Source of the DNA: a virus | Strand: one strand, 5' to 3' | Length of the DNA: 43,130 nucleotides | Virus record (IMG/VR): IMGVR_UViG_3300045988_040655 | Span: 1-43,130 of that record | Shown here: one piece after another, positions 9,483-37,336 of the stretch | Position numbering within the stretch: the stretch's first letter is position 1 | Layout of the letters: every line of letters starts with the position of its first letter | Made by a program: the position numbers and the translations under genes | Notes under the pieces: model-generated | The model's input: the letters and a program-made list of their open reading frames with translations, nothing else | Database searches by the model: none | Told to the model about the DNA's origin: nothing

Positions 9483-9677
9483 TTACCCCTCCTCTCTGAA
9501 CAACGCTTCCACCGGTGTTCCAAGCGCCTTTGCGATGCGGATTGCTACGTCCACTCGCGGCTTTTTCTGGCCTTTCTCCCAGTACAGATATGCTCTGTCG
9601 GAGACGCCAACTTCACTTGCGACTTGTGCTTGTGTCTTGCCGGACTTCTCACGAGCCGCTTTCATTGCCACATTCAC
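9483..9677 (-). CDS. Cro/XRE-family HTH regulator (first gene of the leftward early operon)
   Basis: 64 aa. KTQAQVASEVGVSDRAYLYWEKGQKKPRVDVAIRIAKALG is a canonical XRE HTH. Confidence 0.85.
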   Translation of the reverse strand: MNVAMKAAREKSGKTQAQVASEVGVSDRAYLYWEKGQKKPRVDVAIRIAKALGTPVEALFREEG

Positions 9678-9700
9678 TTGCTCCTCTCCTTCTAGCCTAA

Positions 9701-9757
9701 CATGAACTTTAGTTCATGTCGTGCCATTATACTAGCACGCACTTTAGTTCATGTCAA
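9701..9757. promoter_or_regulatory. Switch 1: divergent overlapping promoters plus operator repeats
   Basis: 18-bp palindrome CATGAAC-TTTA-GTTCATG (9701-9718). 15-bp direct repeat ACTTTAGTTCATGTC at 9706-9720 and 9741-9755. Minus strand: TTGACA (9757-9752), 17 nt, TAGTAT (9734-9729), or 20 nt to TATAAT (9731-9726). Plus strand: TATACT (9728-9733). Confidence 0.6.
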
Positions 9758-9790: not shown

Positions 9791-10006
9791 ATGACATTCC
9801 CCGAACGCATTATTCAGCTGAAAACTGACCGTAATCTGCTTCAAAAGGACATTGCCGCCGCTATTGGTCTATCTCTCCGCGCCTATCAGTATTACGAGAA
9901 GGGGCAGAAAGAACCGACGCTTTCAGCTCTGGTTCGGCTGGCTGATTTTTTTGAGGTCAGCCTTGATTACCTCGTCGGTCGTTCAGACGACCCCCAGATG
10001 CGATAA
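9791..10006 (+). CDS. XRE-family HTH regulator (71 aa; candidate repressor of switch 1)
   Basis: Start MTFPERII... with GGAGG SD. LLQKDIAAAIGLSLRAYQYYEKGQKEPTLSALVRLADFFEVSLDYLVGRSD. No peptidase S24 domain. Confidence 0.85.
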   Translation: MTFPERIIQLKTDRNLLQKDIAAAIGLSLRAYQYYEKGQKEPTLSALVRLADFFEVSLDYLVGRSDDPQMR

Positions 10007-10259: not shown

Positions 10260-10481
10260 TCATTCATCGTCAGCGCCTTCATCCGGTAAATCCAGAATGT
10301 CTTTGATTGCGGACTTTACCCTTGCCGCAGGCCTTTGACCGTTCAGAATCTTCGCCATATAACTACTGTCCACGAAAAGCCCGGTGGTATTCTTCACTTC
10401 GGAACACAGCCACTCTTGCGTTCGTCCCATCGTCATCAGCTTAGTCTTTACGGCAATTCCAAAACTTGTGGGTTTTCGCAA
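10260..10481 (-). CDS. XRE-like HTH protein (73 aa, TTG start; Cro-like arm of switch 2)
   Basis: TTG at 10481 with SD GGAGGTG 6 nt upstream. KLMTMGRTQEWLCSEV...SSYMAKILNGQRP is HTH-like. The longer track ORF lacks an RBS. Confidence 0.55.
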   Translation of the reverse strand: MRKPTSFGIAVKTKLMTMGRTQEWLCSEVKNTTGLFVDSSYMAKILNGQRPAARVKSAIKDILDLPDEGADDE

Positions 10482-10500: not shown

Positions 10501-10529
10501 TTGACAGATACAGGATTATGTACTATTAT
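10501..10529 (+). promoter_or_regulatory. Sigma-A-type promoter (rightward, toward 10654)
   Basis: TTGACA (10501-10506), 17 nt, TATTAT (10524-10529). Confidence 0.6.
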
Positions 10530-10542
10530 GAATGTAAAAGCT

Positions 10543-10619
10543 ATACAGAATCCCGTTTGCAAGTATGATTATATACGGAATTCTGTATGTAGTCAATAAA
10601 AAAATACGGAACTCTGTAT
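10543..10619. promoter_or_regulatory. Three operator-like 16-bp near-palindromes (ATACGGAAyTCTGTAT family)
   Basis: 10543-10558 ATACAGAATCCCGTTT (inverted orientation); 10573-10588 ATACGGAATTCTGTAT; 10604-10619 ATACGGAACTCTGTAT. Start-to-start spacing is 30 and 31 bp. Confidence 0.6.
10568..10596 (-). promoter_or_regulatory. Sigma-A-type promoter (leftward, toward 10481)
   Basis: On the minus strand: TTGACT (10596-10591), 17 nt, TATAAT (10573-10568). The spacer coincides with the middle operator. Faces the rightward promoter at 10501-10529. Confidence 0.65.
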
Positions 10620-10653: not shown

Positions 10654-10998
10654 ATGGGTAATATGTATGAGTCTATTGTCAGTCTTTGTGCGAAGAAGGG
10701 AATGTCAGTTTCCGATCTGTGCGCCGCCGCAGATATTAGACGTAGCACAATGACCGAACTGAAGATGGGCCGAACAAAGTCTCTGGGGGCCAAAAATCTC
10801 ACTAAGGTTGCGGACTGTTTGGGTGTTTCCATTGAGGAAATTCTAAGTGAAAAAGAAAAGACCACTGCCAAAACGGATAGCGGTCATAGCCCTATTTCAG
10901 AAAATATTGCAAGTTTTATTGATGCGCTCCCTGCCGACCAGCAGGAAATTGCATGGAATATGGTTAGCTCTGTCTTTGGAGAGAAAGCGGCTGATTGA
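10654..10998 (+). CDS. XRE-family HTH repressor-like protein (114 aa)
   Basis: GAGGTG SD. MSVSDLCAAADIRRSTMTELKMGRTKSLGAKNLTKVADCLGVSIEEIL. The C-terminal tail SGHSPISENIASFIDALPADQQE...GEKAAD is shared with the next gene. Confidence 0.8.
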   Translation: MGNMYESIVSLCAKKGMSVSDLCAAADIRRSTMTELKMGRTKSLGAKNLTKVADCLGVSIEEILSEKEKTTAKTDSGHSPISENIASFIDALPADQQEIAWNMVSSVFGEKAAD

Positions 10999-11007
10999 GG
11001 TTCCATT

Positions 11008-11598
11008 ATGAGCGAATCCTACAGTAACATTAAGCAACCATGCGCCTTGTATGGAACAATCCACGCTTTATGTGCGCAAAAGGGCATTGCCGATTCTCGG
11101 ATGTGCGCTGACATTGGAATAAGCCGCGGAATTATGAGCGATTTGAAAACAGGGCGAAAATCCGGTGTGAGTGCAAAGACACTCAATAAGATTGCAGGTT
11201 ATTTCGGCGTATCAATGAGCTATCTGTTAGGCACGGAAACGGCCTTTGCGTCTGATGGTAAATCTGCGGATTTGGTTGAAGGGATTCGGCATTTGTGCAA
11301 ACAGAACGGATTATCGCTGACCAAGTTAGAAGCAGTCCTCGGATTTGGGAACGGCACAATCGGGCGGTGGAAAACCGCTAGCCCAACCTACGACAAGCTC
11401 GCGGCTGTTGCGGATTATTTTGACGTTTCTGTCGAATATTTAACAGCGGGAAAAGAGAAAGCCGCCACCTCGGAAGGTAGCGGCCATAGCTCCATATCGG
11501 AAGAAATCGCAAATATTATAGACGCTCTCCCCGACAGCACTCAGGAACAGGCATTGCGCTTGATTCGTTACATCTACGGAGAGAAAGAAGCTGATTGA
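11008..11598 (+). CDS. Tandem-HTH XRE-family regulator (196 aa), paralog of 10654-10998
   Basis: Two XRE HTH units (residues ~15-75 and ~90-145). Same C-terminal tail: SGHSSISEEIANIIDALPDSTQE...GEKEAD. Confidence 0.85.
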   Translation: MSESYSNIKQPCALYGTIHALCAQKGIADSRMCADIGISRGIMSDLKTGRKSGVSAKTLNKIAGYFGVSMSYLLGTETAFASDGKSADLVEGIRHLCKQNGLSLTKLEAVLGFGNGTIGRWKTASPTYDKLAAVADYFDVSVEYLTAGKEKAATSEGSGHSSISEEIANIIDALPDSTQEQALRLIRYIYGEKEAD

Positions 11599-11677
11599 TA
11601 AGCGTCTCTCGTTTCTCATCATCTGCGCAGATTGCGTCCAGCATCGTGAGCATCTCTTCTCGGTCTCGTTCGTTCAT
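11516..11677 (-). CDS. Small protein (53 aa); candidate SOS-controlled factor
   Basis: ATG 11677 with SD GGAGGG 7 nt upstream and a near-consensus promoter 11713-11741 just upstream. The 3' 83 nt overlap the convergent gene 11008-11598. No homology recognised. Confidence 0.45.
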   Translation of the reverse strand: MNERDREEMLTMLDAICADDEKRETLINQLLSLRRCNESSAMPVPECCRGERL

Positions 11678-11712
11678 GTACTTTCCCTCCATATGTTTGA
11701 TTTGGTAATCCA

Positions 11713-11741
11713 ATAATAGAACGTTTGTTCTACATAGTCAA
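11713..11741 (-). promoter_or_regulatory. Sigma-A-type promoter (leftward) with a GAAC-N4-GTTC palindrome in its spacer
   Basis: On the minus strand: TTGACT (11741-11736), 17 nt, TATTAT (11718-11713). The spacer contains TAGAACAAACGTTCTA. Confidence 0.6.
11717..11732. promoter_or_regulatory. Perfect 16-bp palindrome TAGAAC-GTTT-GTTCTA (Cheo/LexA-box-like)
   Basis: Matches the Gram-positive SOS-box core GAAC-N4-GTTC. Sits between and inside two back-to-back promoters. Confidence 0.5.
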
Positions 11742-11750
11742 TGATAAAAT
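11742..11750 (+). promoter_or_regulatory. Extended -10 promoter element for the TM2 gene
   Basis: TGaTAAAAT (TG 11742-11743, TAAAAT 11745-11750). The -35 region would overlap the palindrome. GAGAGGA SD and GTG at 11781. Confidence 0.5.
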
Positions 11751-11780
11751 GTCATTTATTTCTCGAGAGGATGTGACGTT

Positions 11781-12080
11781 GTGGCTAATTACACTACATC
11801 AACAAGCGACAAATTGAAAAAGGCGGCGATTAAACGCCTTTTTATCGGCGGAATAGGTTTGCACCTGTTCTATGTAGGTAGAATCAAGCACGGCCTATAT
11901 CGCCTGATTGCGGGTCTTATTTGCTGGATTGCAATTATCGGCGGCATCGTTGACAGCGAAATGCGTTTGCCCGGCATCTTGGGTGGACTTTTCTTCCTCA
12001 TTCTTATCAATGTACCCGACTTTATCAAGCTGATTTTGGGTTCGTTCAGGGACAACGTTGGAAATCCGCTTCGAGATTAA
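11781..12080 (+). CDS. TM2 domain-containing membrane protein
   Basis: 99 aa, GTG start. FIGGIGLHLFYVGRIKHGLYRLIAGLICWIAIIGG matches the TM2 signature (GxxGxHxFYxG...G). Confidence 0.75.
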   Translation: MANYTTSTSDKLKKAAIKRLFIGGIGLHLFYVGRIKHGLYRLIAGLICWIAIIGGIVDSEMRLPGILGGLFFLILINVPDFIKLILGSFRDNVGNPLRD

Positions 12081-12256
12081 GTGACCCCTTCTCTATCGTC
12101 ACCGATAAAGTGACCATCTTTCAACTGCGGCACAACGTAGTGCCAGAACAGCCGAGCATCCTGCTCAGATATGCGACCTATATCGTCCGTTCCAAACATT
12201 GCGACAAGGGCGTCTGCATATTCGGGATGTTCGGCTATTTTTATCCTGTAATTCAT
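12077..12256 (-). CDS. Hypothetical protein (59 aa)
   Basis: ATG 12256 with SD AAGGAGG 8 nt upstream. Its stop overlaps the TM2 gene stop (TTAA). Confidence 0.5.
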   Translation of the reverse strand: MNYRIKIAEHPEYADALVAMFGTDDIGRISEQDARLFWHYVVPQLKDGHFIGDDREGVT

Positions 12257-12277
12257 CTCCTGCACCTCCTTTTCGGT

Positions 12278-12306
12278 ATCATACCCGAAACGACTTTTCC
12301 TTTTAA
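12278..12306 (-). promoter_or_regulatory. Possible promoter for 12077-12256
   Basis: On the minus strand: TTAAAA (12306-12301), 17 nt, TATGAT (12283-12278). The imperfect inverted repeat TTCGGTATCATACCCGAA overlaps the -10. Confidence 0.3.
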
Positions 12307-12359
12307 TGGATAACGTGCGGGAGATTAGGTTAATTTACACGCAGAAAAGGAGTGAAATT

Positions 12360-12962
12360 ATGAGAACAAGGGACGAATTGCGGGATGGCTGCGCAAATTT
12401 ATTGCGTAAATTGCGACTAGAGACAAGTTACAGTAAATCGAAAATGGCGGAGACCGTCGGAATTGACCTCCGCACATGGGAAAAGTATGAGAGCGGACAA
12501 GCGTCCCCGCGTGTAGATGAGTTTATCGCATGGTTCGACCTGTTCCACGCAGACGCGCTCCGCTATGTGTTGGATTACCTTTACCCGGACATTTACGACG
12601 GGCTAATAAATGACAGCCGGATGGGCGACCTGCGGAAAGCTGCAATGCACTACATATCTAATGTAGCATCTGACCATGCAATCAAGAAATTTGACTTTCT
12701 GGTATTCGGCGAACATGGATCAAACATCGAAGCCCAGACAGAGGAATTTACGATGCTCGACCACCTGCCACTCACGATGCGGCTTGCGGTTGCGTCCCTG
12801 ATTGACATCCTATACCAGACGGCGGAGGCAAACAACCTGCTGGTCTGCACCGACTGCGTTATGCCCATAGTTGATGTATTTCACGACGGCCTGAAAAAGG
12901 GACGTGAAGCCGTAATGGACGGGAAGCAAAGCTATACCACGTCCTCGGTGAGGAAAATATGA
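12360..12962 (+). CDS. HTH (XRE-like) regulator with ~130-aa C-terminal domain of unknown function
   Basis: 200 aa from ATG 12360 (SD AAAGGAG). MAETVGIDLRTWEKYESGQASP. ATGA coupling to the integrase. No S24 motif seen. Confidence 0.7.
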   Translation: MRTRDELRDGCANLLRKLRLETSYSKSKMAETVGIDLRTWEKYESGQASPRVDEFIAWFDLFHADALRYVLDYLYPDIYDGLINDSRMGDLRKAAMHYISNVASDHAIKKFDFLVFGEHGSNIEAQTEEFTMLDHLPLTMRLAVASLIDILYQTAEANNLLVCTDCVMPIVDVFHDGLKKGREAVMDGKQSYTTSSVRKI

Positions 12963-14077
12963 GCACCTGTATCAAATGCAAAGCCGCCTTGCCGGAATGG
13001 GCTGTTTACTGCCCTATGTGCGGCAAAAAGCAGGTGGCCGAAAAGCGTAAGACGCTCAAACGTGCAAACGGAACCGGCTCCGTCTACAAGCTCTCAGGGC
13101 GGCGCACAAGGCCGTGGGTGGCCGCAAAGGGCAAGGTCATCATCGGATACTATGAGCGCAAGACGGACGCTCTGGAAGCTCTGGATAAGCTGGCAGGGCA
13201 TACGGTGGCAGAACGGTACAATTTTACGTTCGCTCAGGTGTATGATGCTTGGAGCAAGGAGCATTTTCGCTCCGTGGGTGATGCGGCAAAAGTCAGCTAT
13301 GGCGCGGTCTATAAAAAGTTTGAGCCTTTGTATGACCGGAAGTTTCGGGATTTGCGTACTGCCGATTTTCAGGCAGTCATAGATGCGCATGCAAATCAAT
13401 CCGCCGCCACGCTCGGCAACTGCAAGTTGCTGGCATCTCAGATGAGCAAGTGGGCTATTCGTGAAGAGATCGCAACGACAAACTTTGCCGCATTTATCCG
13501 ATTGCCGAAAAAGGAAACAAAGGAAAAGGAAATATTTACGCCAGAGGACATAGCTGCCTTGACCGCCGATGACAGTGACACCGCACGGGTAATACTTATG
13601 CTGATCTATACCGGTATGCGCGTAGGCGAACTTTTCAAGTTGTCTGTCGAGGATTATCATGGTGCTTACGCTATCGGCGGTGAGAAAACAAAAGCGGGCA
13701 AAAACAGGGTTATCCCGATCCGCCCGGAAGGGCAACAGTATTTTGAGTATTTTGCAAGCATAGCAAATGGCGAAAGGCTCCTGTCTGGGTATGCGGCAAA
13801 AAATACGCAGCAGTTCCGCGTGGCGTATTTTTACCCGCTGTTGGACAAGCTAGGGATCAAGCGCAAGACCCCACATTCCACCCGGCACACATACGCCAGC
13901 TGGGCGCTGCAAAACGGTATCGCTCCCGAAAATTTGCAAAAAATCTTGGGGCATGCAAAGTTTGCCACGACAGCGGAAATTTACTATCACAGCGACGCTG
14001 ACACTCTTGTGTCAGCTGTGCTTAATGCTAGTAACCGTGTTAGTAACCTAAAACAGACAGACGCAGATGAAAACTGA
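12959..14077 (+). CDS. int: Tyrosine integrase with N-terminal zinc ribbon and AP2-like arm-binding domain
   Basis: 372 aa. CIKC...CPMCG; GSVYKL...RPWVA; catalytic residues in TGMRVGEL, HSTRHTYAS and LGHAKFATTAEIYYH (R...HxxR...H...Y). Confidence 0.95.
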   Translation: MSTCIKCKAALPEWAVYCPMCGKKQVAEKRKTLKRANGTGSVYKLSGRRTRPWVAAKGKVIIGYYERKTDALEALDKLAGHTVAERYNFTFAQVYDAWSKEHFRSVGDAAKVSYGAVYKKFEPLYDRKFRDLRTADFQAVIDAHANQSAATLGNCKLLASQMSKWAIREEIATTNFAAFIRLPKKETKEKEIFTPEDIAALTADDSDTARVILMLIYTGMRVGELFKLSVEDYHGAYAIGGEKTKAGKNRVIPIRPEGQQYFEYFASIANGERLLSGYAAKNTQQFRVAYFYPLLDKLGIKRKTPHSTRHTYASWALQNGIAPENLQKILGHAKFATTAEIYYHSDADTLVSAVLNASNRVSNLKQTDADEN

Positions 14078-14279
14078 TAACACCCGGATAATTGCTGATA
14101 AATCAGTGCTTATCCGGGTGCATCAGTTTTGAGCAAAAATGTTAATATTAAGATAGTTTTAATATGTTGCGGCGTCGCAAAAATTATGCAACTCAAAAAA
14201 TCTAGCATTTCCAGTGGTTTCATCGATCTCACTTGCGGCAATTTTGCGGATTTGTTAGTAACGCGCTAGCAACCGTGTT
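14027..14279. other. Candidate attP region
   Basis: Non-coding AT-rich stretch between int and the convergent cassette. G[CT]TAG[TC]AAC motifs at 14027-14035, 14039-14047, 14254-14262 and 14265-14273. The 15-mer GCTAGTAACCGTGTT (14027-14041) recurs 14/15 at 14265-14279. TTGCGG occurs three times. Confidence 0.45.
14081..14120. terminator. Bidirectional intrinsic terminator between int and the cassette
   Basis: Perfect 11-bp stem CACCCGGATAA/TTATCCGGGTG (14081-14091 / 14110-14120) with an inner CTGAT/ATCAG (5 bp) stem. CAGTTTT follows on both strands. Confidence 0.7.
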
Positions 14280-17710: not shown

Positions 17711-18013
17711 CTAAATTAAATTGGTTAAGATAGGCATTGCGTCATCGATTTTCGCCCGGATGGTGCGTTCTGAATAGCCGACCCAATCGGCAATCGTGGC
17801 ATAATCCTGATGTTTGCAAAAGCGCCTGTGCAAGATGTCCTTTGTGACGTCATCTAGGTTCGCGGACTCAATCAGCTCTGCGAGGTCATAAGACCGTGCA
17901 ATCCGTTTCAGGCGGCGCTTTACGTCCGCCGGATTCGGGTCAAGTTCGTTCAGCGCGTCCAGCAGGATGCGGATGATTTTAAGCCGGGTTTCGGCCAGAA
18001 TAGCGTCGGTCAT
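17711..18013 (-). CDS. Sigma-70 region-4-like / DUF1492-like small transcription regulator
   Basis: 100 aa. DILHRRFCKHQDYATIADWVGYSERTIRAKIDDAM is a region-4-type HTH. ATGA-type overlap with the endolysin. Confidence 0.55.
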   Translation of the reverse strand: MTDAILAETRLKIIRILLDALNELDPNPADVKRRLKRIARSYDLAELIESANLDDVTKDILHRRFCKHQDYATIADWVGYSERTIRAKIDDAMPILTNLI

Positions 18014-18909
18014 GCGTTAAGCCAGCGCTGAAGCGCTTTTGCGGACTCTGCGCCAAACACGCCGTCAACGGAACAAGGGAACCCCTCGCCGCACAGGAAG
18101 GACTGCAACGCCTTTGCGGTACCTTTGCCCAGCAGACCATCAGCAGACGTGCCAACGGCGGACTGCATTGCGGCCACAAACTGAGACTTGCCGCCAGTCC
18201 AGCCGCAAGCGGAATTGCAAATTGCAGGCCAGTACTTTTTGCAAGATGCGGACTGGCCGGAAATATAGCCGTCAGCCGCAGTGCCAAGAAGCTGCTGAAA
18301 CGCCTTGATGGTGCCTTTCCCGATTTGTCCGTCTACGGTCAGTTTGCCGGGCGTAGGAGCAGCGGAAGGCGTAGGCGTCGCACCTGCTTTGGAGCCGTTG
18401 GACAACACCATGACGGTGTGACTACCCGGCTTAACGAGGATGTCGCCCCGCTTGAGATAGGCGTCGCCGGTCAGGTATTTGCTGTCCGTCAGCACCTCAA
18501 ATGCGCCGGTCGCGCGGAACTTGTCCACCATCGTGCTGGTGGTGGGTGCATTGCCGCTGTACTCCAGTGCGGAGACACCGCCAGCGAGGGCACAAACCGT
18601 CATAAATGCAGAACAGTCCGTCTCGCATTTGGTGTTGATAATGGCCAGATTGTAGCCGCACCGCTTTGCGTAGTAATGCAGGGTGTTGCGCTGGCTCTGA
18701 TCGTAGCCGATTTTATTGTTTGCACAGCCCTGTTCGCAGGCTTTTGCCATGCGCTCCGCCACACTGGCAGACTTGGGTCGCAGGCAGTATCGCCAGCCCT
18801 TGTTGTACCAGCTGCGGGTGCATACTTCGCGCCCGGTCTGGTCACCGGTTCTGCCGCCGGAAGCCTTGCCGCGCTCGTCAATGGATGCGTGTCCGATGGT
18901 TACGCTCAT
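18010..18909 (-). CDS. Endolysin: N-terminal Cys-His (NlpC/P60- or CHAP-like) hydrolase plus C-terminal peptidoglycan-binding repeats
   Basis: 299 aa. GHASIDERGK...ETDCSAFM...GDILVKPGSHTVMV. An Ala/Pro/Thr linker is followed by three DG.(I/L)GKGT.KA(F/L)Q..L-type repeats. Confidence 0.8.
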   Translation of the reverse strand: MSVTIGHASIDERGKASGGRTGDQTGREVCTRSWYNKGWRYCLRPKSASVAERMAKACEQGCANNKIGYDQSQRNTLHYYAKRCGYNLAIINTKCETDCSAFMTVCALAGGVSALEYSGNAPTTSTMVDKFRATGAFEVLTDSKYLTGDAYLKRGDILVKPGSHTVMVLSNGSKAGATPTPSAAPTPGKLTVDGQIGKGTIKAFQQLLGTAADGYISGQSASCKKYWPAICNSACGWTGGKSQFVAAMQSAVGTSADGLLGKGTAKALQSFLCGEGFPCSVDGVFGAESAKALQRWLNA

Positions 18910-21828: not shown

Positions 21829-23574
21829 TTACTTCCACCTTCCCAGCACCAGCACCGACACGGTAAGCGCATCTGCGCCGCCGAAACTGCCGGATGGGTT
21901 ATGCACAAAGACGCGGGCGCTCTGGTTATCGCTCTGCGGGACAACCTTCACATTCCAGCCAAGCGCAGCACCGGCATTGCTTCCGACACTCTCCAAAGTT
22001 CCGAAGGCCGCCACGCCAGCCTGTAGGGCGAACGGATAGCTCACCCATTTTCCCAGCACGGATGCGGCGGAATACTCTGCTGTCACGTTGCACCACATCA
22101 TGGCAAGGCCGGACGCACACTTGACGTATGACCATTCCCCATAGGTTCCGTTCTCGGTCATAATGTCCCCGATCTGATTGTCGCCCAGAGTCACCTTCCC
22201 GCGAAACTTGGTGTCATATCCCACATCAAACACGTTTTCCAGCTCCGCCGTCTTTCCGAGGGATAACCCATCCCTCGACGCATAAAGGTCAAGGATCACC
22301 TTTGCAGACAGGACGGATACAGTCCTGCGGTCGCTGGTAAAGTAGTCCGCAACGACCAGCCGGAAATCATACTGATAGTCGTTGGAGAACACAGTGTCCG
22401 GAACTACGGATGTTTCTTTGCTGTATGCAGGGTCTGTCAACAGAGTTGTCCACTCCGTCTCCGTGCTCCGTTTGTACTCGATCGTTACCGCATGGGTGTT
22501 TTTTCGGTCGACTTCCGAGATCGCATAGCTGTATTCAACGAGCACATAATCGGAGTCCTCCTGATAGACGCCGCTTTTTGTGGCGCGGTTGACCGCAAAG
22601 GCTTTGATCGTCGGCCTCTGATACCCATCGACGTATACCGTGACTTCCGTGCTCGCCGTTCTGCCTCTGGTGTCCGTTACGCTCACATAGACCGGCACGA
22701 CGCCATAAGTCGTGATCGTATTGGTCGTTATGGACTGCCCGGAATATTTCACCTCACCTACTGATGTGACGTAGTCCCAGATTTTGCTGCCATAAGCGCC
22801 AGACGCAGTGATCTTTACATTCAGCCGCGATTTGTTCTGCACATATACGCCGAATTGCTTTGCGATAACGGCCTCCGCCTCCGAAAAGGCAACGTCTGAA
22901 ATGCTGGGAACCATATCGTCCGGGACAGACAGCGTAATTGGAAAATCCTGAGTTGCGATCACGTTACCCCCGGAATAGGTGATGAGCTGGAGCTTTCCCG
23001 TGCCGGATACCGCGTTGGGAATTTGCTCTGCAAGCGATTCAGGCGGGTACCACTCGTACCAGCCGGATGGTTTATCATCCAGAACCCACTCGCTGGCGGA
23101 ACCGAAGGTGTAGACAACGCGGTGCCGGAAGGCGTCGGACTCCGCCGAAATATGCAGCACCACCTTTGAGCCGATCGTGCCGCCGTCAATGGTCATCGCG
23201 CTGCCGCGCGGAATGGTGTCCAGCGTCTGGGTTGCAGACACACTGCCCGTGATTTTGCCGGAGATACTGCCGCTCAGACTGAGCACCATAGAGCCATCCG
23301 AATTGTGCGCAACGGTAGTCGTGCCGGACAGCAGGCTTGTTGCCCCGCCCGGAGACACCCGCACCTGCCCGCTGCCGCTGTAAGCGTTTCCGCCGATGTT
23401 GGCGGCATAGGAGCAGCTGCCCCATGTGTCCGACGTGGAGGAGCCGGACTTGCGGACTCTCAGCCACCAGCTGACCGTAGTCGTGTTATTCTCGACGGAC
23501 TGACTGTCCACCCGAGTCTCCAGCTCGATTGTAATGTACTGGTTGCTGGACGTCTGATTTGAGTAGATCGCCAT
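21829..23574 (-). CDS. Minor structural / baseplate protein (DUF859-like siphovirus protein)
   Basis: 581 aa from ATG 23574 (SD AGGGGA 8 nt upstream). N-terminus IYSNQTSSNQYITIELETRVDSQSVENNTTTVSWWLRV is typical of the DUF859 family. Confidence 0.7.
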   Translation of the reverse strand: MAIYSNQTSSNQYITIELETRVDSQSVENNTTTVSWWLRVRKSGSSTSDTWGSCSYAANIGGNAYSGSGQVRVSPGGATSLLSGTTTVAHNSDGSMVLSLSGSISGKITGSVSATQTLDTIPRGSAMTIDGGTIGSKVVLHISAESDAFRHRVVYTFGSASEWVLDDKPSGWYEWYPPESLAEQIPNAVSGTGKLQLITYSGGNVIATQDFPITLSVPDDMVPSISDVAFSEAEAVIAKQFGVYVQNKSRLNVKITASGAYGSKIWDYVTSVGEVKYSGQSITTNTITTYGVVPVYVSVTDTRGRTASTEVTVYVDGYQRPTIKAFAVNRATKSGVYQEDSDYVLVEYSYAISEVDRKNTHAVTIEYKRSTETEWTTLLTDPAYSKETSVVPDTVFSNDYQYDFRLVVADYFTSDRRTVSVLSAKVILDLYASRDGLSLGKTAELENVFDVGYDTKFRGKVTLGDNQIGDIMTENGTYGEWSYVKCASGLAMMWCNVTAEYSAASVLGKWVSYPFALQAGVAAFGTLESVGSNAGAALGWNVKVVPQSDNQSARVFVHNPSGSFGGADALTVSVLVLGRWK

Positions 23575-23575
23575 G

Positions 23576-24229
23576 TCAGGCATCCCCTACGGCGTACCAT
23601 TTATAGGTCGCATTCGAGATCGGCTTATAGCTTGTCGAGGAGGCAAGCACTGTAATAGTTCCGCCAGATACCTTCAAAACATTCGTGTCGCTCATATAAA
23701 CATTTTGGATGTATGATGAGTAGGATGAGCACCCGATCCCGCGTCCAGTTATACCGCCCTCTACGTCAACAAATGCACATACCAACCCCGCAGCATGTAG
23801 CTTGTTTGCTGTGTCGTAAACCATAAACGCTGAGATGCTTGATATGCCTGTCTCAATCACCACCTCGGTTTCCGCCCCGGTAAAGCTGCCGGTTTTTATG
23901 GTACTGCCGGAACCGCCGCTGCCCGCATACGTTCCTGCTACCCCGAAGATAGACACACCCCTCTTGATGTTTCCGGCGCTCAAATTCCCGTCGCCTTTGA
24001 TGGTCTGAGCGCCGGTGAGATACTGGTTCGCGGCGATCGTCTGGTTCGCCGTGCCGGGCGTGATGGTTTCCGCCGCTTTACGCGGCACATCTGCGCCGAC
24101 ATAAGAGGGCAGCTCTTTCTCGATCTCCGCAATGGCGGAGGCATTCGCGCTTGCGCCGGATTCCAGATTGTTCAGCGCGTCCGCCGTGATCGTATCGCCG
24201 GTGCTCCACGTTTTCTTTGTGTAACTCAC
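23576..24229 (-). CDS. Tail fibre / receptor-binding-type protein
   Basis: 217 aa, GTG start with SD AAGGAGG. N-terminus KKTWSTGDTITADALNNLE is a common phage fibre N-terminal motif. Confidence 0.65.
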   Translation of the reverse strand: MSYTKKTWSTGDTITADALNNLESGASANASAIAEIEKELPSYVGADVPRKAAETITPGTANQTIAANQYLTGAQTIKGDGNLSAGNIKRGVSIFGVAGTYAGSGGSGSTIKTGSFTGAETEVVIETGISSISAFMVYDTANKLHAAGLVCAFVDVEGGITGRGIGCSSYSSYIQNVYMSDTNVLKVSGGTITVLASSTSYKPISNATYKWYAVGDA

Positions 24230-26082: not shown

Positions 26083-26454
26083 TCACAGCTCAACAAAATT
26101 GCAAGACAGCTCGCAGATCGCAGAGCTAGGGTCGCTTGCGTCAATGTAATTCACGATAGAACCGTTTCTGTCACCCGCGTACATAGTTCTGGTTACGAAA
26201 GCGCAGGTGGTCAAGTCAAAAAATTCAACCGTGAACGATGCGGGAGAAATGGCACTCACAACAGAAGATAATTCAGCCATCGTGAGATGCCATTTCAATT
26301 CGATCTTGTACACACCTTCCCGCACCCGGTCGCGGAACATGACTCCATCTTCGCCTCGCCCGGTTGCGCTTCCGTCCAAGTCGGAGCGTGAAATGGTGTA
26401 CCCGTCCGCCAGTGGGGTCGGAAGCGCCGTTCCATTTACTTTAATCAAGGTCAT
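26083..26454 (-). CDS. Distal tail protein-like (short)
   Basis: 123 aa. ATGA overlap with the TMP gene. Assigned by position between TMP and Tal. Confidence 0.5.
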   Translation of the reverse strand: MTLIKVNGTALPTPLADGYTISRSDLDGSATGRGEDGVMFRDRVREGVYKIELKWHLTMAELSSVVSAISPASFTVEFFDLTTCAFVTRTMYAGDRNGSIVNYIDASDPSSAICELSCNFVEL

Positions 26455-29400
26455 GCGTAAGATTTCACCATCCCGTTCGTCCGAATCGCCTTCTGCTTCT
26501 GCCGCTTCTCCACTCTGGCCGCGATCTGGTCGCTATCGAGGTAAATGTAAATATCCCCGGAACCGCCGTTTTCGGCCATCGCCTGTTTGAATGCCTGTAC
26601 CATCGTAGACAAAGGAGTCTCGATGTTCGTTCCGTTTCTCTGGTCACCCAGCACGGCAAGGAATTCTTTGTTCGGCGGGATGACTGCGCCCTGCGCGAGA
26701 CGGGGAATCTGCGGAACAGAAATGGTCGGTAGCCAGCTGAACGGTTTCAGTCCGGCAATGCTGACGCGCTTGATGGAACGCAGGGCAGAATTAAGTCCGT
26801 TAAACGGGACAGCAATAACCCGGTTGATTCCAGAGATAAGCCCGTTCACAACGGTTTTTAGTCCGCTCAGGATGCCTTCTTTAATGCCGTCAAACACTGC
26901 GCCGCCAGTGGAGAAAACGTCCTTTACAGCCTGCCACGCGGCAGAGAACTTACCTTCAAACCAGCCGGACACATTGGCAAATACGTTCTTGATGCTTGTC
27001 CACAGGCCCTGAAACGTCTGAATAATAGCGTCAATTTTATCCTTAACGCCTTGCAGCAGACCTTCGGAAATGTAGTTGCCGATGGTTTTCATCTCTTTGG
27101 AGGGAGACGCAATTCCGAACGCTTTCTTAATGCCGTTCCAAATTGGAAGGAAGATGTTATTCTTGATCCAAGAGCCAATGCTTTTCAATACGTCAAGGAT
27201 GCCATCAAGCAGTCCTTTGATAGTAAATTGCCCGTCCTCATAGGCCACCTCATGCCACCAGTTCACAACGGATTCCCATGCATCTTCAATAAGCCCCCAC
27301 AAAAACGCAACCGCCGCGCCAAAGGCCGCGCCGATAGCCGTAAAGCAGGAAACTGCAACCCCAGACCAGTCCACGTTTTCTAGGAACGTAGCAATCTGGT
27401 GGCCGAGCGCTTGCCAATCGATTGAAGCGATTGTATCTGTAATGGAATCGAAAAATCCTTTTGCAATATTTCCTGCCGCTTCTGCAAGCTCCGGCATATC
27501 AAGATTGAGCAAAAAGCCCGCCAGTGTCTCAATCGCAATCTTAAACTTTGCCCATAAGAGCTGGCCAAGCGCCGTCCACTCTACAGCCGAAATCGCGTTA
27601 TTAAACATGGTCGCAAGGCTTGCGCCCAAATTCATGAAATCGAAGCTATAGATCAGGTTTGACAGAAACGCCAGTGCCAAATTGAATCCGGCACCCAGCG
27701 CCGTTCCGATGGTCGCCCAGTCGATCTGATTCACAAAATCGTTGAACGCAAAGGCGACTTCCTGTCCAAGCTGAACGACCTTATCGTAAACTCCGGGGAA
27801 GGTGAACATTTCCGCCACGTTGGCCGCGAAGTCGTTGATCCACCCGGCGAGGGATGTGAGGGCGTTTTTCAACGCCGGAATACCGTCATTCAGCAGTTTG
27901 TCCAAGAATGCGGAGAACGCCGCGCCCCACGAATCGAAGTTCAGCGGTTCGATTTTCTCAGTGGTGAACATATCGCCGACACCTCCGCCTCCTCCGCCGC
28001 CACCACCTCCACCGCCGGAGCTGCCGGACGGCGCGTCCAACTTATTGATCTCATCAAATCCAGCCAGTGTTTTCGACGCCTCCTGTGCCGCGTCTGCCGC
28101 ACTTCCTGCCGCGCTGGCCGTGTTGTTCAGGCTTGCGGCGTAGTCCTGCTGGACAGACGTTGCCTTGACGAAGGATGTTTTGCCCGTCAGAGCCGCCGTG
28201 AGCCTCGCTACTGCCGTTGCCGCAGAGGATAGCATATTGATGAAGGTCGTAAGAATGGGGGCTACAACGGACAGAATAGGCGCAAATGCTGTCGCAAGGC
28301 TGTTTTTCAGCTGCGTCAATGCGGACATAACCATTGAAATATCCGAATTGGTCTGCCCGGAGAACTGCGCCAGATTCTTGAATCCATCAACAAGAGCTGA
28401 CTTCAATTTGCGCACCAGCATATAAAGGGAACGGATGCTGAGTGCATATTTCAGGATCGTAAAAATGCCGGATGCAAAGCCACCGTTTGCCTTCTTGGAA
28501 CTGTCACCCAAGCCGAACAGATGCTTTGCGGCGTTTTTCAGCGACTTGCCGAGGGAACTGAGCCCCTTCTTGACAGCACTGCCAACCATACTTTTCAGGG
28601 CGGAACCGGCTTTCAGTGCAAGACTGCCGATGCCCTTTAACCCGGCCTGCAAACCCTTCAGCGGCAACTTGGCCAGTCCCTTTAAGCCATCTTTAAGCTT
28701 ATCTGCAAAAGATGTTTTCTGGCTGTCATTCCACTCCGCAACAGCGCTTTCCATGCGCTGATACTCAGCGGTAGTCTGCCGGACGGCCTCCGTATGCTTG
28801 AGCTGTGCCTGCTGGCAATCTCGAATTTTCTGGAGGATATAGTCCTGCTCTTGTGCGAGGCGCTCTGAGCGCTCTTGCTGTGCCGGGGTCAGCTCCCCGT
28901 TCTTCTCCTGTGCTTTTGCAATTCTGGACTGAGCAGCCTTGTTGTTTTTCAGCAAACGCTTCCAGTCCGCTTCCTCCGCCGTGGAGGCTTGGAGCTTGAT
29001 TTCCTCGCTTTCGGCCTTCTTCTTGAGCTTTTCAATCGATTTCTCCGCCGCCTCGATGTCAACATCAACGGGGAGTTCGATTTCACCGGCTTTGACACCG
29101 TTCTTCTGCAAATCAGCCAGCTGCTTTTTTGCGTATGCCAGCTTTGTTGCCAGCTCATTTGGTACAGCAGGTTTCGCACCCTGTGCCGCTCTGGACGATG
29201 CTATTTCTTGAGAGAGCTTTCCATATTCAGCCACAGTGGCTTTGATTGCCGCAGTGTATTTGCGTTCCGCAGCCTCTGCCGCGCGTATCTGCGTCTGAAT
29301 TGCTACCCACTGGCTTCCCAGATAAACAAGCTGTTTCCGCTCTTCCGGTGTAATAGTGCCCTTTGCCTTTATCGCGTTGGACTTCGCTTCATTTTCAGCA

Positions 29401-29546
29401 AGCACCTTTTTCAGCTCTTCTTTGTTGCCGATAGCCACATCCAAGCTGATTTTCGTCCGGCCGATTTTCTTTTGCAGCTTGAGCAGTTCTTTTTCTGCGT
29501 CATCAATGTCGAGATTTACAGGAATATCAAATCCTTCGTCTGCCAT
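26451..29546 (-). CDS. Tape measure protein
   Basis: 1031 aa. Coiled-coil N-terminus, hydrophobic Gly/Ala-rich central helices and a G11 tract. Canonical position after the chaperone genes. Confidence 0.92.
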   Translation of the reverse strand: MADEGFDIPVNLDIDDAEKELLKLQKKIGRTKISLDVAIGNKEELKKVLAENEAKSNAIKAKGTITPEERKQLVYLGSQWVAIQTQIRAAEAAERKYTAAIKATVAEYGKLSQEIASSRAAQGAKPAVPNELATKLAYAKKQLADLQKNGVKAGEIELPVDVDIEAAEKSIEKLKKKAESEEIKLQASTAEEADWKRLLKNNKAAQSRIAKAQEKNGELTPAQQERSERLAQEQDYILQKIRDCQQAQLKHTEAVRQTTAEYQRMESAVAEWNDSQKTSFADKLKDGLKGLAKLPLKGLQAGLKGIGSLALKAGSALKSMVGSAVKKGLSSLGKSLKNAAKHLFGLGDSSKKANGGFASGIFTILKYALSIRSLYMLVRKLKSALVDGFKNLAQFSGQTNSDISMVMSALTQLKNSLATAFAPILSVVAPILTTFINMLSSAATAVARLTAALTGKTSFVKATSVQQDYAASLNNTASAAGSAADAAQEASKTLAGFDEINKLDAPSGSSGGGGGGGGGGGGVGDMFTTEKIEPLNFDSWGAAFSAFLDKLLNDGIPALKNALTSLAGWINDFAANVAEMFTFPGVYDKVVQLGQEVAFAFNDFVNQIDWATIGTALGAGFNLALAFLSNLIYSFDFMNLGASLATMFNNAISAVEWTALGQLLWAKFKIAIETLAGFLLNLDMPELAEAAGNIAKGFFDSITDTIASIDWQALGHQIATFLENVDWSGVAVSCFTAIGAAFGAAVAFLWGLIEDAWESVVNWWHEVAYEDGQFTIKGLLDGILDVLKSIGSWIKNNIFLPIWNGIKKAFGIASPSKEMKTIGNYISEGLLQGVKDKIDAIIQTFQGLWTSIKNVFANVSGWFEGKFSAAWQAVKDVFSTGGAVFDGIKEGILSGLKTVVNGLISGINRVIAVPFNGLNSALRSIKRVSIAGLKPFSWLPTISVPQIPRLAQGAVIPPNKEFLAVLGDQRNGTNIETPLSTMVQAFKQAMAENGGSGDIYIYLDSDQIAARVEKRQKQKAIRTNGMVKSYA

Positions 29547-34733: not shown

Positions 34734-35915
34734 TTAGCCGTTTTGCACCCGTGTGCGCTCGTTCTGTTCAGGCAGCCCGGCAACTCTGGAAAATTTCTTG
34801 TATTTCCGGGTCAGCCGCCGAATACGAATATTAGCTGCATCGGCATCCTCTTTCAGACCGGCTGATTTATATGCTGACCGCTCCCGCTTCATTCTGCGAA
34901 GCGTTCTTTCTATCTGCCGCTGCTTCTGGGTGGCTTCATAGCCGTCATATTCCCGGCCTTCAAACGTAATTTTCCGATTTTCGCCCTTCATCGCGGCCAA
35001 CTCATCCTGCGTATATGTCGGTTCAGACACGCCCTCAACATAAGCATGGAAGGAATGGCGGCAATTCCAGCCACCCAAGCCTTCACCAGACCCATATCCG
35101 GTATGTCGGATGAAGTCCGGGTAGTCGCCGGTCGAATATCTGGGCTTCTGAACCCACCGATAGACCTTGCCCTGCCACATTTCGTGGTTTTCCGGCTCAA
35201 AGCCTTTGTTTCGCGCCCCGATATGGGCGGAAACTTCCACAAGGTCTGTGTAAAGACTGTCCATTGCGGATTCTGCGAATTTCAAGCACAGCTGATTTAC
35301 CCCAGTCAAAACAGCGCGTCTCACTGCCACATCGACCTGTTCCACCTTGCCGCTTTCATAGCTGACAGTCTTAATGCCGCTTTTTGCAAGGCTCCTGACT
35401 GCCGCTTTCACGGCCTGTTCATAGCTCACCGTGCCGGACTGCACTTGAATGACCGCGTTATCCAGCGCCCACTGGTACGCTTTTGCCGGTTTCAGCATAG
35501 TGCGTCCAGAATCAACCAGAAAGCCCATAGAGCCGGTAATGTTGCGGTATTCGCCCAATGTCTGCTCCCGGATTGCACGGGTCACAGAACCCTCCAGAAT
35601 CGGTCTGATTTGTTTTGAGATGGTTTTAGAACCCAACTCCGCGTAAAATCGTGTATTTTCTGTCTCTACACTGTCCATTATGGCGGATATTTTAGCCTCT
35701 CCGGCTTTCGTGGTCTTTCGGATAGCGGCCTGAATATCTTTCATGCTGACATTGCGCATCTTATTCAAGTCCTGCACGGTTATTGCGGAAAGATACTTGG
35801 CCGCTTCCAGGTTGGAACACACACCGTCAAGGACTAAATCCTCGACCTGTCGGAACAGTTCAGCGACTTCTTCCGGTAGTACGTCGAGGACTTCCGGCGT
35901 GAATGGGTACTTCAT
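34734..35915 (-). CDS. Head morphogenesis / minor capsid protein (SPP1 gp7-like)
   Basis: 393 aa. GGWNCRHSFHAYVEG motif and position after the portal gene. Confidence 0.8.
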   Translation of the reverse strand: MKYPFTPEVLDVLPEEVAELFRQVEDLVLDGVCSNLEAAKYLSAITVQDLNKMRNVSMKDIQAAIRKTTKAGEAKISAIMDSVETENTRFYAELGSKTISKQIRPILEGSVTRAIREQTLGEYRNITGSMGFLVDSGRTMLKPAKAYQWALDNAVIQVQSGTVSYEQAVKAAVRSLAKSGIKTVSYESGKVEQVDVAVRRAVLTGVNQLCLKFAESAMDSLYTDLVEVSAHIGARNKGFEPENHEMWQGKVYRWVQKPRYSTGDYPDFIRHTGYGSGEGLGGWNCRHSFHAYVEGVSEPTYTQDELAAMKGENRKITFEGREYDGYEATQKQRQIERTLRRMKRERSAYKSAGLKEDADAANIRIRRLTRKYKKFSRVAGLPEQNERTRVQNG

Positions 35916-37336
35916 TCAATTTCCGTCTCCTCCTCGTCGGTCATATCTTCCATCTTGGGAAGATTTTTCTTGGCTTCCTCGTCGGATTCGCTCATCCACT
36001 TCGCTCGGAATTCCCAGTCATTCATGATGTCAGAGGTCAGCAGCTGAACATCGCGGGTAAATTCGGCATTTTTATCCTCAATGATGGAATCATCGAAGTC
36101 AATTTTGATTTTTACCTCTGGATTCAGGCTCTGCCCCATGCCGATATTGCCCATTCTGAGGATGATGCGGCACAGTTCGGTTAAAACCTGATCCAAAATG
36201 ATCTCATGCTTCTTGATCGACCGAAACAACGTAGAGTTCTCCGAAATGACCTGCGTCGCAGTGGTCATGTCCGGCGCGTCGAACTTGTAATATGCCTCGC
36301 CAAACCCGCATTTGCTGGCCAAAATGTTCAACTGGTCTTGCAAGCCGACATTCAGCTGCTCACTTCTCAGCTCCGGTGCAACGGCCTGCACCGGCTGTCC
36401 CTGCTGCGTATCCTCCGGCAGCAGATAGAACCGTCTGTCATCGTCCGCAACCGTAGGAGTTCCATTTTCCCAATCTGTGGCCGACATTTTTACCAGAAGG
36501 TACATGGGGCCATTCTCGAACTCGTTTACATAGCAGTCGTAAGCGCAGTCAACGCCCCTCAGAACGTCAATGGCGTTCGCAAAAACCGAAACGCCCACCG
36601 GCAGCGTATAATCCACGTTATTCGCAATATTTGGCCGGTCGATGACGAACTGCCGCTTGTCACTGCCCGTGTTAACAACTGACGGGATGTTTTCAAAGCC
36701 CCTGACGGCTCCCATATCGACGTCAGACAGGATTTCATTGTCATAGCGATAAAGTCTATTCTCGATAACGTAAAGCCCGTCCTGCCCCTTGTGATGGATT
36801 TGGAGGTACAGATATTTGCTGCCGTCCACAAAGAATTCACTGGCAAAGGCGCATTCGGAGATATACCCGTTCTGCCAAGTCAGCGGGAAGATATTTTCGA
36901 TGGTCACATAGTCGATTGCGATACCAGCTGCCGCGCCCGGAGAAATGTTGCCCAGACTATCTACCACCTGACCGGTCACACGCGGGACGTATGCAGTCGT
37001 TCCAAATGCACATTTCAGCTCCTGCATTTCCGACATCTTTACCAGAAAGTTATTCTCGGCAAGGATTTTGTCAATGAACATCTGCTCTGCCGCGCCGTCG
37101 GCCACAATCTTGACTTTTTCGTTCATCAGGAGGTTTGCCCAGTCCTCGCAGACCTTCTTCCCCATGCCCATACTGGCCCGTTCGCAGTTCACGAATTTCT
37201 TCCCGTTGTACCGCTTGTATGTGTGGAAGTTTTTTACTTTGCCGACGTACCAGGCTTTCCAGTCTGCTACTTTGTCGTAAAATTCCTCCGGAATTGTTTC
37301 GTAGCCAAGTTCCCGGAGCTTTGCAACAACGGTCAT
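35912..37336 (-). CDS. Portal protein (SPP1 gp6-like)
   Basis: 474 aa. ATGA overlaps on both sides. Acidic C-terminus; position after terL. Confidence 0.9.
   Translation of the reverse strand: MTVVAKLRELGYETIPEEFYDKVADWKAWYVGKVKNFHTYKRYNGKKFVNCERASMGMGKKVCEDWANLLMNEKVKIVADGAAEQMFIDKILAENNFLVKMSEMQELKCAFGTTAYVPRVTGQVVDSLGNISPGAAAGIAIDYVTIENIFPLTWQNGYISECAFASEFFVDGSKYLYLQIHHKGQDGLYVIENRLYRYDNEILSDVDMGAVRGFENIPSVVNTGSDKRQFVIDRPNIANNVDYTLPVGVSVFANAIDVLRGVDCAYDCYVNEFENGPMYLLVKMSATDWENGTPTVADDDRRFYLLPEDTQQGQPVQAVAPELRSEQLNVGLQDQLNILASKCGFGEAYYKFDAPDMTTATQVISENSTLFRSIKKHEIILDQVLTELCRIILRMGNIGMGQSLNPEVKIKIDFDDSIIEDKNAEFTRDVQLLTSDIMNDWEFRAKWMSESDEEAKKNLPKMEDMTDEEETEIE

Follow-up and report, generated by a model that had tools for sequence, protein, structure and literature searches.

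Switches in which LexA represses the gene of an antirepressor are already known in phages of Bacillus, Escherichia coli and Salmonella, and their principle is established. Judged by its arrangement, the closest described counterpart of the locus treated here is AimX-AimC of phage phi106, where a 29-amino-acid (aa) open reading frame (ORF), AimX, lies just downstream of a LexA site and shares 30 base pairs (bp) with the end of the convergent aimC gene (bioRxiv 10.1101/2025.11.23.689978). AimC is a short repressor of the XRE family with a C-terminal helical oligomerisation domain. AimX binds this domain and blocks oligomerisation, which the authors liken to SinI-SinR, and the active agent is the AimX protein, not an antisense RNA (bioRxiv 10.1101/2025.11.23.689978). 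Here we analyse a stretch of viral DNA of 43,130 nucleotides (nt), positions 1 to 43,130 of IMG/VR record IMGVR_UViG_3300045988_040655 (the window hereafter, meaning the whole stretch). In it, a predicted LexA operator of the Cheo-box type at 11717-11732 is placed in the promoter of a 53-aa ORF on the minus strand (11516-11677; the small ORF hereafter). This small ORF is probably functional as a real SOS-gated small-protein gene. For the full model, in which its product would be an SOS-induced small antirepressor acting on the neighbouring XRE repressors, our confidence is slightly better than even.

The anatomy of the locus is as follows. The palindrome TAGAACGTTTGTTCTA (TAGAAC-GTTT-GTTCTA) has its core half-sites GAAC at 11719-11722 and GTTC at 11727-11730, and GAACGTTTGTTC at 11719-11730 is an exact match to GAAC-N4-GTT[CT], the LexA consensus of Bacillus and Clostridium (PMC4234289). 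A first-pass annotation of this DNA, made from the letters alone, had placed the palindrome in the spacer of a leftward promoter, and both its position and a promoter scan confirm this. The sigma-A-type promoter (11713-11741, minus strand) consists of the -35 hexamer TTGACT (11741-11736), a 17-nt spacer and the -10 hexamer TATTAT (11718-11713); it scores 10/12 in the consensus scan, and the 12-bp core box takes up spacer positions 1-12 counted from the -10 end. A Shine-Dalgarno (SD) sequence, GGAGGG (11690-11685), lies 22 nt downstream of the -10 hexamer and 7 nt upstream of the ATG at 11677, from which the small ORF (MNERDREEMLTMLDAICADDEKRETLINQLLSL...) runs to a stop that ends at 11516. From codon 27 to codon 53 it shares 83 nt (11516-11598) with the 3' end of a convergent gene, that of a 196-aa repressor candidate. 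Further along the minus strand, at 11450-11485, there is a predicted intrinsic terminator of the leftward transcript, made of an 11-bp G+C-rich stem with a tetraloop and then UUCUCUUUUC. In its hairpin (11485-11460) 7 of the 11 stem pairs are G-C, and the RNA fold has an energy of -24.1 kcal/mol (z = -2.2). The codons of the flexible linker of the 196-aa repressor (KAAT-SE-GSGH) contain this terminator. With a promoter of its own and a terminator inside the repressor gene, the leftward unit would therefore be a discrete transcript of ~250 nt. The palindrome, the leftward promoter, the small ORF and the TM2 ORF on its other side all lie at the coordinates first assigned to them.

Several features of this layout are shared with AimX-AimC. 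In both cases a small helical ORF (29-80 aa) is found just downstream of a LexA site and runs towards a short XRE repressor gene that codes for no cleavage domain, in some cases overlapping its 3' end; the repressor gene in turn has a divergent Cro-like neighbour. In the repressor of the AimX-AimC system, a flexible linker joins an N-terminal helix-turn-helix (HTH) domain to a C-terminal helical domain for oligomerisation; for a 114-aa repressor candidate here, an HTH domain, a disordered linker and two C-terminal helices are predicted. On the other hand, there is no detectable sequence similarity between the two systems, and the phages here are of Clostridia type whereas those there belong to Bacillus. 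The locus also has no AimR/AimP arbitrium pair upstream, and LexA appears to be the only recognisable input: no receptor-sized ORF (~380 aa) and no family match was found upstream of the small ORF, where the sole ORF on the same strand is one of 62 aa (12265-12077), with the TM2 gene and the gene of a 218-aa HTH protein as its neighbours. Moreover, this locus has two tandem repressor paralogues (one of them carries two HTH domains), an overlap of 83 nt and a terminator within the repressor linker codons.

The other known systems are more distant in one respect or another. Sar of SPbeta/phi3T is a LexA-controlled small antirepressor of SroF (bioRxiv 10.1101/2025.11.27.690993). It shares with our locus a Firmicutes phage, an SOS box of the GAAC-N4-GTTC type in the promoter and a repressor that is not RecA-cleavable. 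However, SroF is a monomeric repressor with an integrase fold and Sar mimics DNA, whereas the candidates here are XRE HTH proteins, and no sequence similarity exists. Tum of phage 186, the Gifsy antirepressors (PMC3121763), AntC of N15 and Ant of SPC32H follow the same logic, namely that LexA represses the antirepressor of a non-cleavable repressor, but they depend on the proteobacterial LexA box CTGT-N8-ACAG and are larger, unrelated proteins whose genes are not convergent and overlapping. The first-pass annotation had likened the arrangement to Tum and the Gifsy phages; the logic is indeed analogous, but neither a sequence relationship nor a common architecture links them. For SinI-SinR (PDB 1B0N), the likeness is a possible heterodimer between a small helical protein and the two-helix C-terminal domain of an XRE repressor, and the 114-aa candidate has a predicted architecture like that of SinR. 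SinI is not LexA-controlled, though, and here there is no Pfam SinI match, while the similarity between the small ORF and the repressor tails is weak and unseen by HMMER. Finally, the LexA/gp7 system of GIL01 (PMC4551915) is also one of a Firmicutes phage that uses host LexA at GAAC-type promoter boxes. There, LexA itself, with a co-repressor, is the lysogeny repressor of lytic promoters, whereas the present phage has repressors of its own and LexA would control just one small accessory gene.

We now turn to the operator itself. The first-pass annotation had expected about 0.7 perfect sites in the window, which our computed value of 0.70 reproduces, and had taken the sites seen as an enrichment. 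An exhaustive scan of the window for GAACNNNNGTTC gave 2 exact sites, at 9704 and 11719, neither of them in a coding region. At least two exact GAAC-N4-GTTC sites were also reached in 19 of 100 dinucleotide shuffles of the window, and with one mismatch allowed there were 23 sites compared with 16.2 expected. Since 19% of the shuffles reach two exact sites, the within-window count of Cheo boxes is not significant and is no evidence on its own, and we dropped enrichment as an argument; moreover, 9704 and the near-perfect site at 9739 are phage operators, as described below. The extended 16-bp palindrome gives a different result: allowing at most one mismatch, it has 1 match compared with 0.03 expected, and 3 of 100 shuffles reach that, so that it is unlikely by chance. 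The case for non-randomness is a comparative one and not one of counts within the window.

Relatives of the cassette were collected in three ways, through the TM2 protein (L001; the L numbers are our labels), through the small protein (L029, L030 and L031), and through a 30-nt pattern of the 5' untranslated region (5'UTR) that excludes the box (L034 and L035). A 20-nt 5'UTR pattern gave only five chance matches in IMG/VR, all in an unrelated gene (L037-L041). In the five cassettes of the window, L001, L029, L034 and L035, the half-sites GAAC and GTTC, the -10 hexamer and GTCAA of the -35 hexamer are invariant, while the box spacer differs (GTTT, ATTA, ATTT, ATTT and TTTT) and so do the 4 nt between the box and the -35 hexamer. 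L030 has lost the promoter at the point where a host oxidoreductase gene adjoins. The composite -10/box/-35 pattern ATAATAGAAC-N4-GTTCTA-N4-GTCAA was then found in 19 IMG/VR stretches, of which ~13 are distinct, with unrelated flanks and 11 different box spacers. Two control patterns with the same frame and base composition, in which the half-sites were permuted to GCAA/TTGC and ACAG/CTGT, had 0 and 0 matches in IMG/VR. It would be very improbable, given these results, that the palindrome is a chance one in an A/T-rich promoter and has no regulatory role. Two core matches compared with 0.70 expected are within chance and would suit that explanation, but it does not account for a 16-bp palindrome expected 0.03 times, for half-sites that are conserved while the spacer varies, or for a design that recurs 19 times while the controls do not occur.

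The HTH genes near the recurring box promoters are mutually unrelated. This implies that the shared recognition element belongs to a host protein and not to a phage repressor. This bears on another explanation, in which the palindrome would be the operator of one of the HTH proteins of the phage and the promoter part of an internal phage circuit. The region is rich in HTH regulators, the Cheo-like palindrome at 9704 proved to be a phage operator, and the boxes of L031 and another relative, L044, have GTAC in place of GTTC, all of which speak for it. We nevertheless regard it as very unlikely: it would require unrelated HTH proteins in ~13 unrelated viral contigs to use identical half-sites in the same frame, which the permuted controls do not show; the arms do not co-vary with the repressor allele, as L001 and the window share the box but differ in the repressor tails; and the motif occurs just once in the window, whereas the phage operators at 9.7 and 10.55 kb are repeated. 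We therefore consider with good confidence that 11717-11732 is a LexA operator of the Firmicutes type in the core of the leftward promoter, as first proposed, on the strength of half-site conservation, recurrence and controls; the prediction takes its consensus from Bacillus and Clostridium. As a separate observation, L017, a viral contig of 182 kb, has a tandem SOS-box arrangement at ~2237-2300, where the LexA-box promoter is accompanied by another GAAC-N4-GTTC box (GAACATTCGTTC), ~20 nt past its -35 hexamer.

The two other sites noted in the first-pass annotation have a different character. The near-perfect site is that at 9739, GCACTTTAGTTC, which reads GCAC...GTTC, and together with 9704 it forms a 24-nt direct repeat, CTArCAyGmACTTTAGTTCATGTC. 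The operator-like copies CTAACATGAACTTTAGTTCATGTC and CTAGCACGCACTTTAGTTCATGTC are located at 9697-9755 and flank the -10 hexamer of a minus-strand promoter, TTGACA-17-TAGTAT (9757-9729), between the divergent HTH genes 9483-9677 (minus) and 9791-10006 (plus). In L001, a 93%-identical relative, both copies of the repeat read GCAC-yTTA-GTTC, with one half-site base different, and in L034 the same position holds another repeated sequence and a different HTH pair. As the repeat varies with the allele, 9704 and 9739 are phage-specific operators that resemble a Cheo box. This allele specificity rules them out as LexA sites, and 11719 is the sole remaining LexA candidate. The segment 9697-9755 looks like a second immunity switch.

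The evidence that the small ORF encodes a protein comes from substitution patterns. Its homologues P0001-P0003 are 96, 77 and 63% identical to the window protein; they keep LLTMLDAICADDEKRELLINQLLSL and diverge after residue 33. Further homologues are P0007-9. The ratio of nonsynonymous to synonymous divergence (pN/pS) was obtained from Nei-Gojobori counts between the window and L029 or L030. It is 0.23-0.29 for codons 1-26, which lie outside the repressor gene, and 0.16-0.19 for codons 6-33, with a synonymous divergence above 0.5 for each, and 0.8-1.7 for codons 27-53, which overlap the repressor gene. By this measure the small ORF is a real protein-coding gene whose selected, functional core is residues 1 to ~33 of the 53. 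The earlier description of the leftward product as a real small protein with a good SD is thus borne out by GGAGGG and the low pN/pS, though selection covers only ~33 of the 53 residues. AlphaFold2 predicts helices at residues 3-18 and 20-40, with a block-mean predicted local distance difference test (pLDDT) value of 93-97 over residues 1-30, and a disordered C-terminal tail.

It may be asked whether the transcript acts instead as RNA or by convergent transcription, such that a ~150-nt 3' antisense overlap would lower the repressor operon after damage and the ORF would be incidental or secondary. In its favour, the transcript covers the final ~150 nt of the 196-aa gene in antisense, as far as the internal terminator, this overlap is kept in several relatives, and an antisense role was what was first proposed for aimX. 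We judge it quite unlikely, because the non-overlapping codons are under purifying selection with many synonymous changes, the ORF is preceded by a good SD and its fold is predicted with confidence, and the terminator confines the antisense reach to the 3' end of the repressor gene. In phi106, too, recoding of the overlap was without effect while a stop codon abolished function. The terminator stem is kept in L029, L030 and another relative, L042, where the loops and hence the linker residues differ, and an equivalent hairpin is found in L001 (3678-3653), again in the linker of its own repressor.

Our database searches describe the small protein as one of a rare, unannotated family that is new in sequence. 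It had no match in Pfam (SinI included), PHROGs, NCBIfam or PADLOC, none of these four linked it to a known antirepressor family, and Foldseek against the PDB returned 0 matches. A tblastn-type search for it in IMG/VR found none. A word-indexed protein search gave just 3 relatives, and an exhaustive HMMER search of 1.84 billion representative proteins added only 3-4 further small relatives (e.g. MNQQEREELLTMLDSICADEEK...) and some repetitive proteins.

The preferred reading as a small antirepressor draws on the proteins that the small ORF faces. In the window, L001, L029, L030, L031, L034 and L042, the small ORF is convergent on, and overlaps, the gene of an XRE repressor with a helical tail, and L001 carries a different small ORF together with a different repressor tail. 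The LexA-box promoters in the unrelated L013, L014 (overlapping), L016, L015 and L011 drive 38-71-aa helical ORFs that are likewise convergent on XRE repressors with a helical tail. The proposed targets in the window are two XRE-family repressor candidates encoded on the plus strand, one of 114 aa (10654-10998; Pfam HTH_26) and one of 196 aa (11008-11598) with two HTH domains and the C-terminal tail ISEEIANIIDALPDSTQEQALRLIRYIYGEKEAD. The latter matches HTH_26, HTH_3 and Phage_CI_repr in Pfam, without Peptidase_S24, and transcriptional regulator and repressor families in PHROGs. The two are tandem paralogues on the lysogeny strand with the common tail SGHSxISExIAxxIDALPxxxQE...GEKxAD. For the 114-aa protein, AlphaFold2 (mean pLDDT 74, from a 5-sequence alignment) predicts a five-helix HTH at residues 4-69, disorder at 69-80 and helices at 83-90 and 94-108. 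Foldseek relates this model to generic XRE regulators including SinR, DdrO and ClgR, with E values of 3e-3 or weaker. Sequence and fold searches of the PDB with the repressor gave only generic XRE HTH matches, and the word-indexed protein search gave just 3 relatives of the 114-aa protein.

A Pfam scan of seven XRE-type (HTH) candidates at ~9.4-13 kb found the LexA-like self-cleavage domain Peptidase_S24 in 0 of the 7, and no antirepressor of the Ant/KilAC/BRO type was found among the ORFs scanned. Because none of the seven candidates has an S24 domain, an SOS-controlled antirepressor is the most likely role of the small ORF, in line with the role originally suggested for it. In a lysogen, host LexA bound between the -35 and -10 hexamers would keep the strong leftward promoter closed. 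DNA damage would bring about RecA-stimulated cleavage of LexA and free this promoter, and the ~250-nt transcript would be made, ending at the terminator within the repressor gene. Its translation would give a small acidic two-helix protein with a functional core of ~33 aa, which we infer to be an antirepressor of the adjacent tandem XRE repressors of 114 and 196 aa. The small protein may bind the two-helix C-terminal tails of these repressors and so block oligomerisation and operator binding, and inactivation of the repressors would release the face-to-face lytic promoter at ~10.57 kb.

That promoter belongs to the segment 10500-10620, which is likely the main switch between the 114/196-aa repressors and the Cro-like protein. 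Two strong promoters stand face to face in it, TTGACA-17-TATTAT on the plus strand (10501-10529) and TTGACT-17-TATAAT on the minus strand (10596-10568), and would give transcripts with an overlap of ~25 nt. At intervals of ~30 bp the segment also contains three operator-like copies of 16 bp: ATACAGAATCCCGT.. at 10543, ATACGGAATTCTGTAT at 10573 and ATACGGAACTCTGTAT at 10604. The Cro-like gene diverges from the 114/196-aa genes and has a probable TTG start near 10481. In L031 (3247-3441), the second repressor gene is an in-frame 64-aa 'tail-only' version without either HTH domain, and this protein could be a dominant-negative.

A possible link between the small protein and the repressor tails was suggested by hhalign, which aligned the profile of the small ORF with that of the repressor tail at a probability of 65% (E 6e-5, 28 columns), a weak profile-profile signal. 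It places EEMLTMLDAI-CADDEKRETLINQLL opposite SEEIANIIDALPDSTQEQALRLIRYI. Reversed profiles gave about half of the score, and 2 of 200 column shuffles reached the real score.

A third explanation accepts a true LexA operator and assigns the gene a different function linked to SOS or to early lytic growth (for example in control of excision, in takeover of the host, or as an inhibitor of division or defence), or else takes a rightward transcript of the TM2, 218-aa HTH and integrase genes as the SOS target. The small protein has no homology to known antirepressors, and its family is found in varied promoter contexts, being the first gene of a Cro-like operon in L045. TM2 genes recur beside LexA-box promoters, and no plus-strand terminator is predicted between the TM2 and the integrase gene. 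In spite of these points we find this explanation unlikely. The small ORF is persistently paired and overlapping with non-cleavable XRE repressors, it agrees with AimX and SinI in size, helicity and gene arrangement, and the rightward promoter is not conserved in L001.

Besides the insignificant count of Cheo boxes, the following observations weigh against the antirepressor model or a part of it. The LexA motif of the host is assumed from the bacterial class. In the distant relatives the box is imperfect or absent: L031 and L044 have the same promoter geometry with the imperfect box GAAC-ATAT-GTAC, in L042 the small ORF lacks a box and comes immediately after a 58-aa ORF, and in L045 it precedes the Cro-like gene behind phage-type repeats, where the box is absent. 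Control by SOS therefore differs among members of the small-ORF family. In L044, a short contig, the small ORF is not beside a tailed repressor. No repressor tail was among the HMMER matches of the small-ORF profile in the 1.84 billion proteins, so that mimicry of the tail, suggested by the weak profile-profile signal and a similar predicted secondary structure, should be taken as a weak proposal. The 114-aa and 196-aa proteins are the proposed targets, although any of the seven HTH proteins may be the master repressor.

On the opposite side of the operator, the first-pass annotation had described a second, rightward promoter that would share it. The candidate extended -10 element TGATAAAAT (11742-11750, plus strand) is kept in 4 of the 5 cassettes (window, L029, L034 and L035), which is in favour of that proposal. 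It is replaced by TAGTGTTGT in L001, the promoter scan found no recognisable -35 hexamer for it, and it occupies the place expected of an A/T-rich UP element of the leftward promoter and may alternatively be one; another leftward promoter, at 10590-10605, has a comparable stretch on its upstream side. The gene that it would drive has a GTG start and encodes a TM2-like two-pass membrane protein of 99 aa (11781-12080, plus strand). The Pfam TM2 (PF05154) match of this ORF has an E value of 4e-5 and 24.1 bits, under the cut-off of 27.9 bits, and no match was found in PADLOC or NCBIfam. Relatives of the TM2 protein were found in 9 viral contigs at 38-93% identity, and in the more distant ones, L002-L005, the TM2 gene comes straight after a repressor-like gene and a divergent promoter is lacking. 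The unrelated L011 and L021 have a Zn-ribbon+TM2 protein in the same position opposite a LexA-box promoter, and that of L011 scores 73 bits. Two fully or nearly symmetric promoters are also known to us from the IMG/VR stretches. In L028 (3823-3856), TTGACA-TAATAGAACATATGTTC-TATTAT is identical on both strands, so that two divergent promoters would overlap completely and share one LexA box; in L010 (1095-1130), a LexA-box promoter is nearly symmetric and bidirectional. The position of TM2 in L011 and L021 and the bidirectional promoters of L028 and L010 favour a link, and an operator shared by the leftward and the rightward promoter is plausible but unproven. More generally, TM2-domain membrane proteins recur in phage lysogeny modules; a search of the literature on TM2 proteins in prophages found nothing useful.

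The window as a whole is the genome of a temperate, siphovirus-like tailed phage. Structural and lysis genes occupy the minus strand from ~38.6 to 14.3 kb, with TerL (37333-38571), portal (35912-37336), tape measure (26451-29546), a tail protein (21829-23583) and an endolysin-like gene (18010-18909). The early genes NinB/Orf, SSB, replication initiator and RusA are also on the minus strand, all below 8.7 kb, and the integrase gene (12959-14077) is on the plus strand. The lysogeny block at 9.5-14.1 kb is dense in regulators and contains the seven XRE-type candidates; six of them have a Pfam HTH match, and the seventh, the Cro-like one, is known from a PHROGs repressor family alone. Megablast of the lysogeny region against GenBank phages gave no match, and an Rfam scan of 9.0-14.5 kb gave nothing relevant. 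The closest integrase in the GTDB genomes is 61% identical and belongs to an uncultured Ruminiclostridium metagenome-assembled genome, from which the cassette is absent. The interval 14078-14278, from the integrase stop to the last late gene, is a non-coding gap that presumably holds attP, and no tRNA gene was found across the whole window. With this gap and no tRNA, the window looks like a free or circularised phage and not an integrated prophage.

A conserved ORF of 58-62 aa (MNYRIKIAEHPEYADALV...), represented in the window by that at 12265-12077, is divergent from the 218-aa HTH protein whose gene precedes the integrase gene (region 12077-12962); the window ORF had no match in PADLOC or NCBIfam. 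In L042 (1194-2239), its 58-aa homologue is followed by the small ORF after a gap of 3 nt, while the window has the TM2 gene and the LexA-box promoter between the two. This suggests that the 62-aa ORF and the small ORF were an ancestral operon under the 218-aa regulator, which was later split by a 'moron' insertion on the opposite strand (the TM2 and/or the Zn-ribbon gene). Because the two ORFs are contiguous in L042, the 218-aa HTH protein may control the unit that they form. LexA and the 218-aa HTH protein may then constitute a two-signal induction switch, comparable to the transcription-factor plus small-ORF modules of Vibrio phages.

A wider generalisation can be put forward, though we hold it to be doubtful. 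Phages of gut and rumen Clostridia would carry a widespread and so far unannotated class of SOS-gated 'micro-antirepressors', that is, two-helix peptides of 30-50 aa that derive from or mimic the C-terminal oligomerisation tails of their cognate non-cleavable XRE repressors and whose genes overlap the repressor 3' end in antisense, with the terminator in the linker codons. Tail, antirepressor and terminator would be exchanged as one mosaic unit, and in the window the 218-aa HTH protein would be a possible second input.

In most gut Clostridia prophages the repressors have no self-cleavage domain, and the route by which DNA damage induces them is rarely known. ORFs as small as the one described here are normally missed by gene callers. 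The practical value of the finding is moderate, as it is a prediction from sequence and the principle is established already. Nevertheless, a three-part signature would allow both inducibility and the induction gene to be predicted from metagenomic phage genomes, namely a promoter with a -35 hexamer, TAGAAC-N4-GTTCTA and a -10 hexamer; an ORF of 30-70 aa with two helices, located downstream; and an XRE repressor gene facing this ORF. The finding would also extend the recently described AimX/Sar type of small antirepressor beyond Bacillus and beyond the arbitrium phages.

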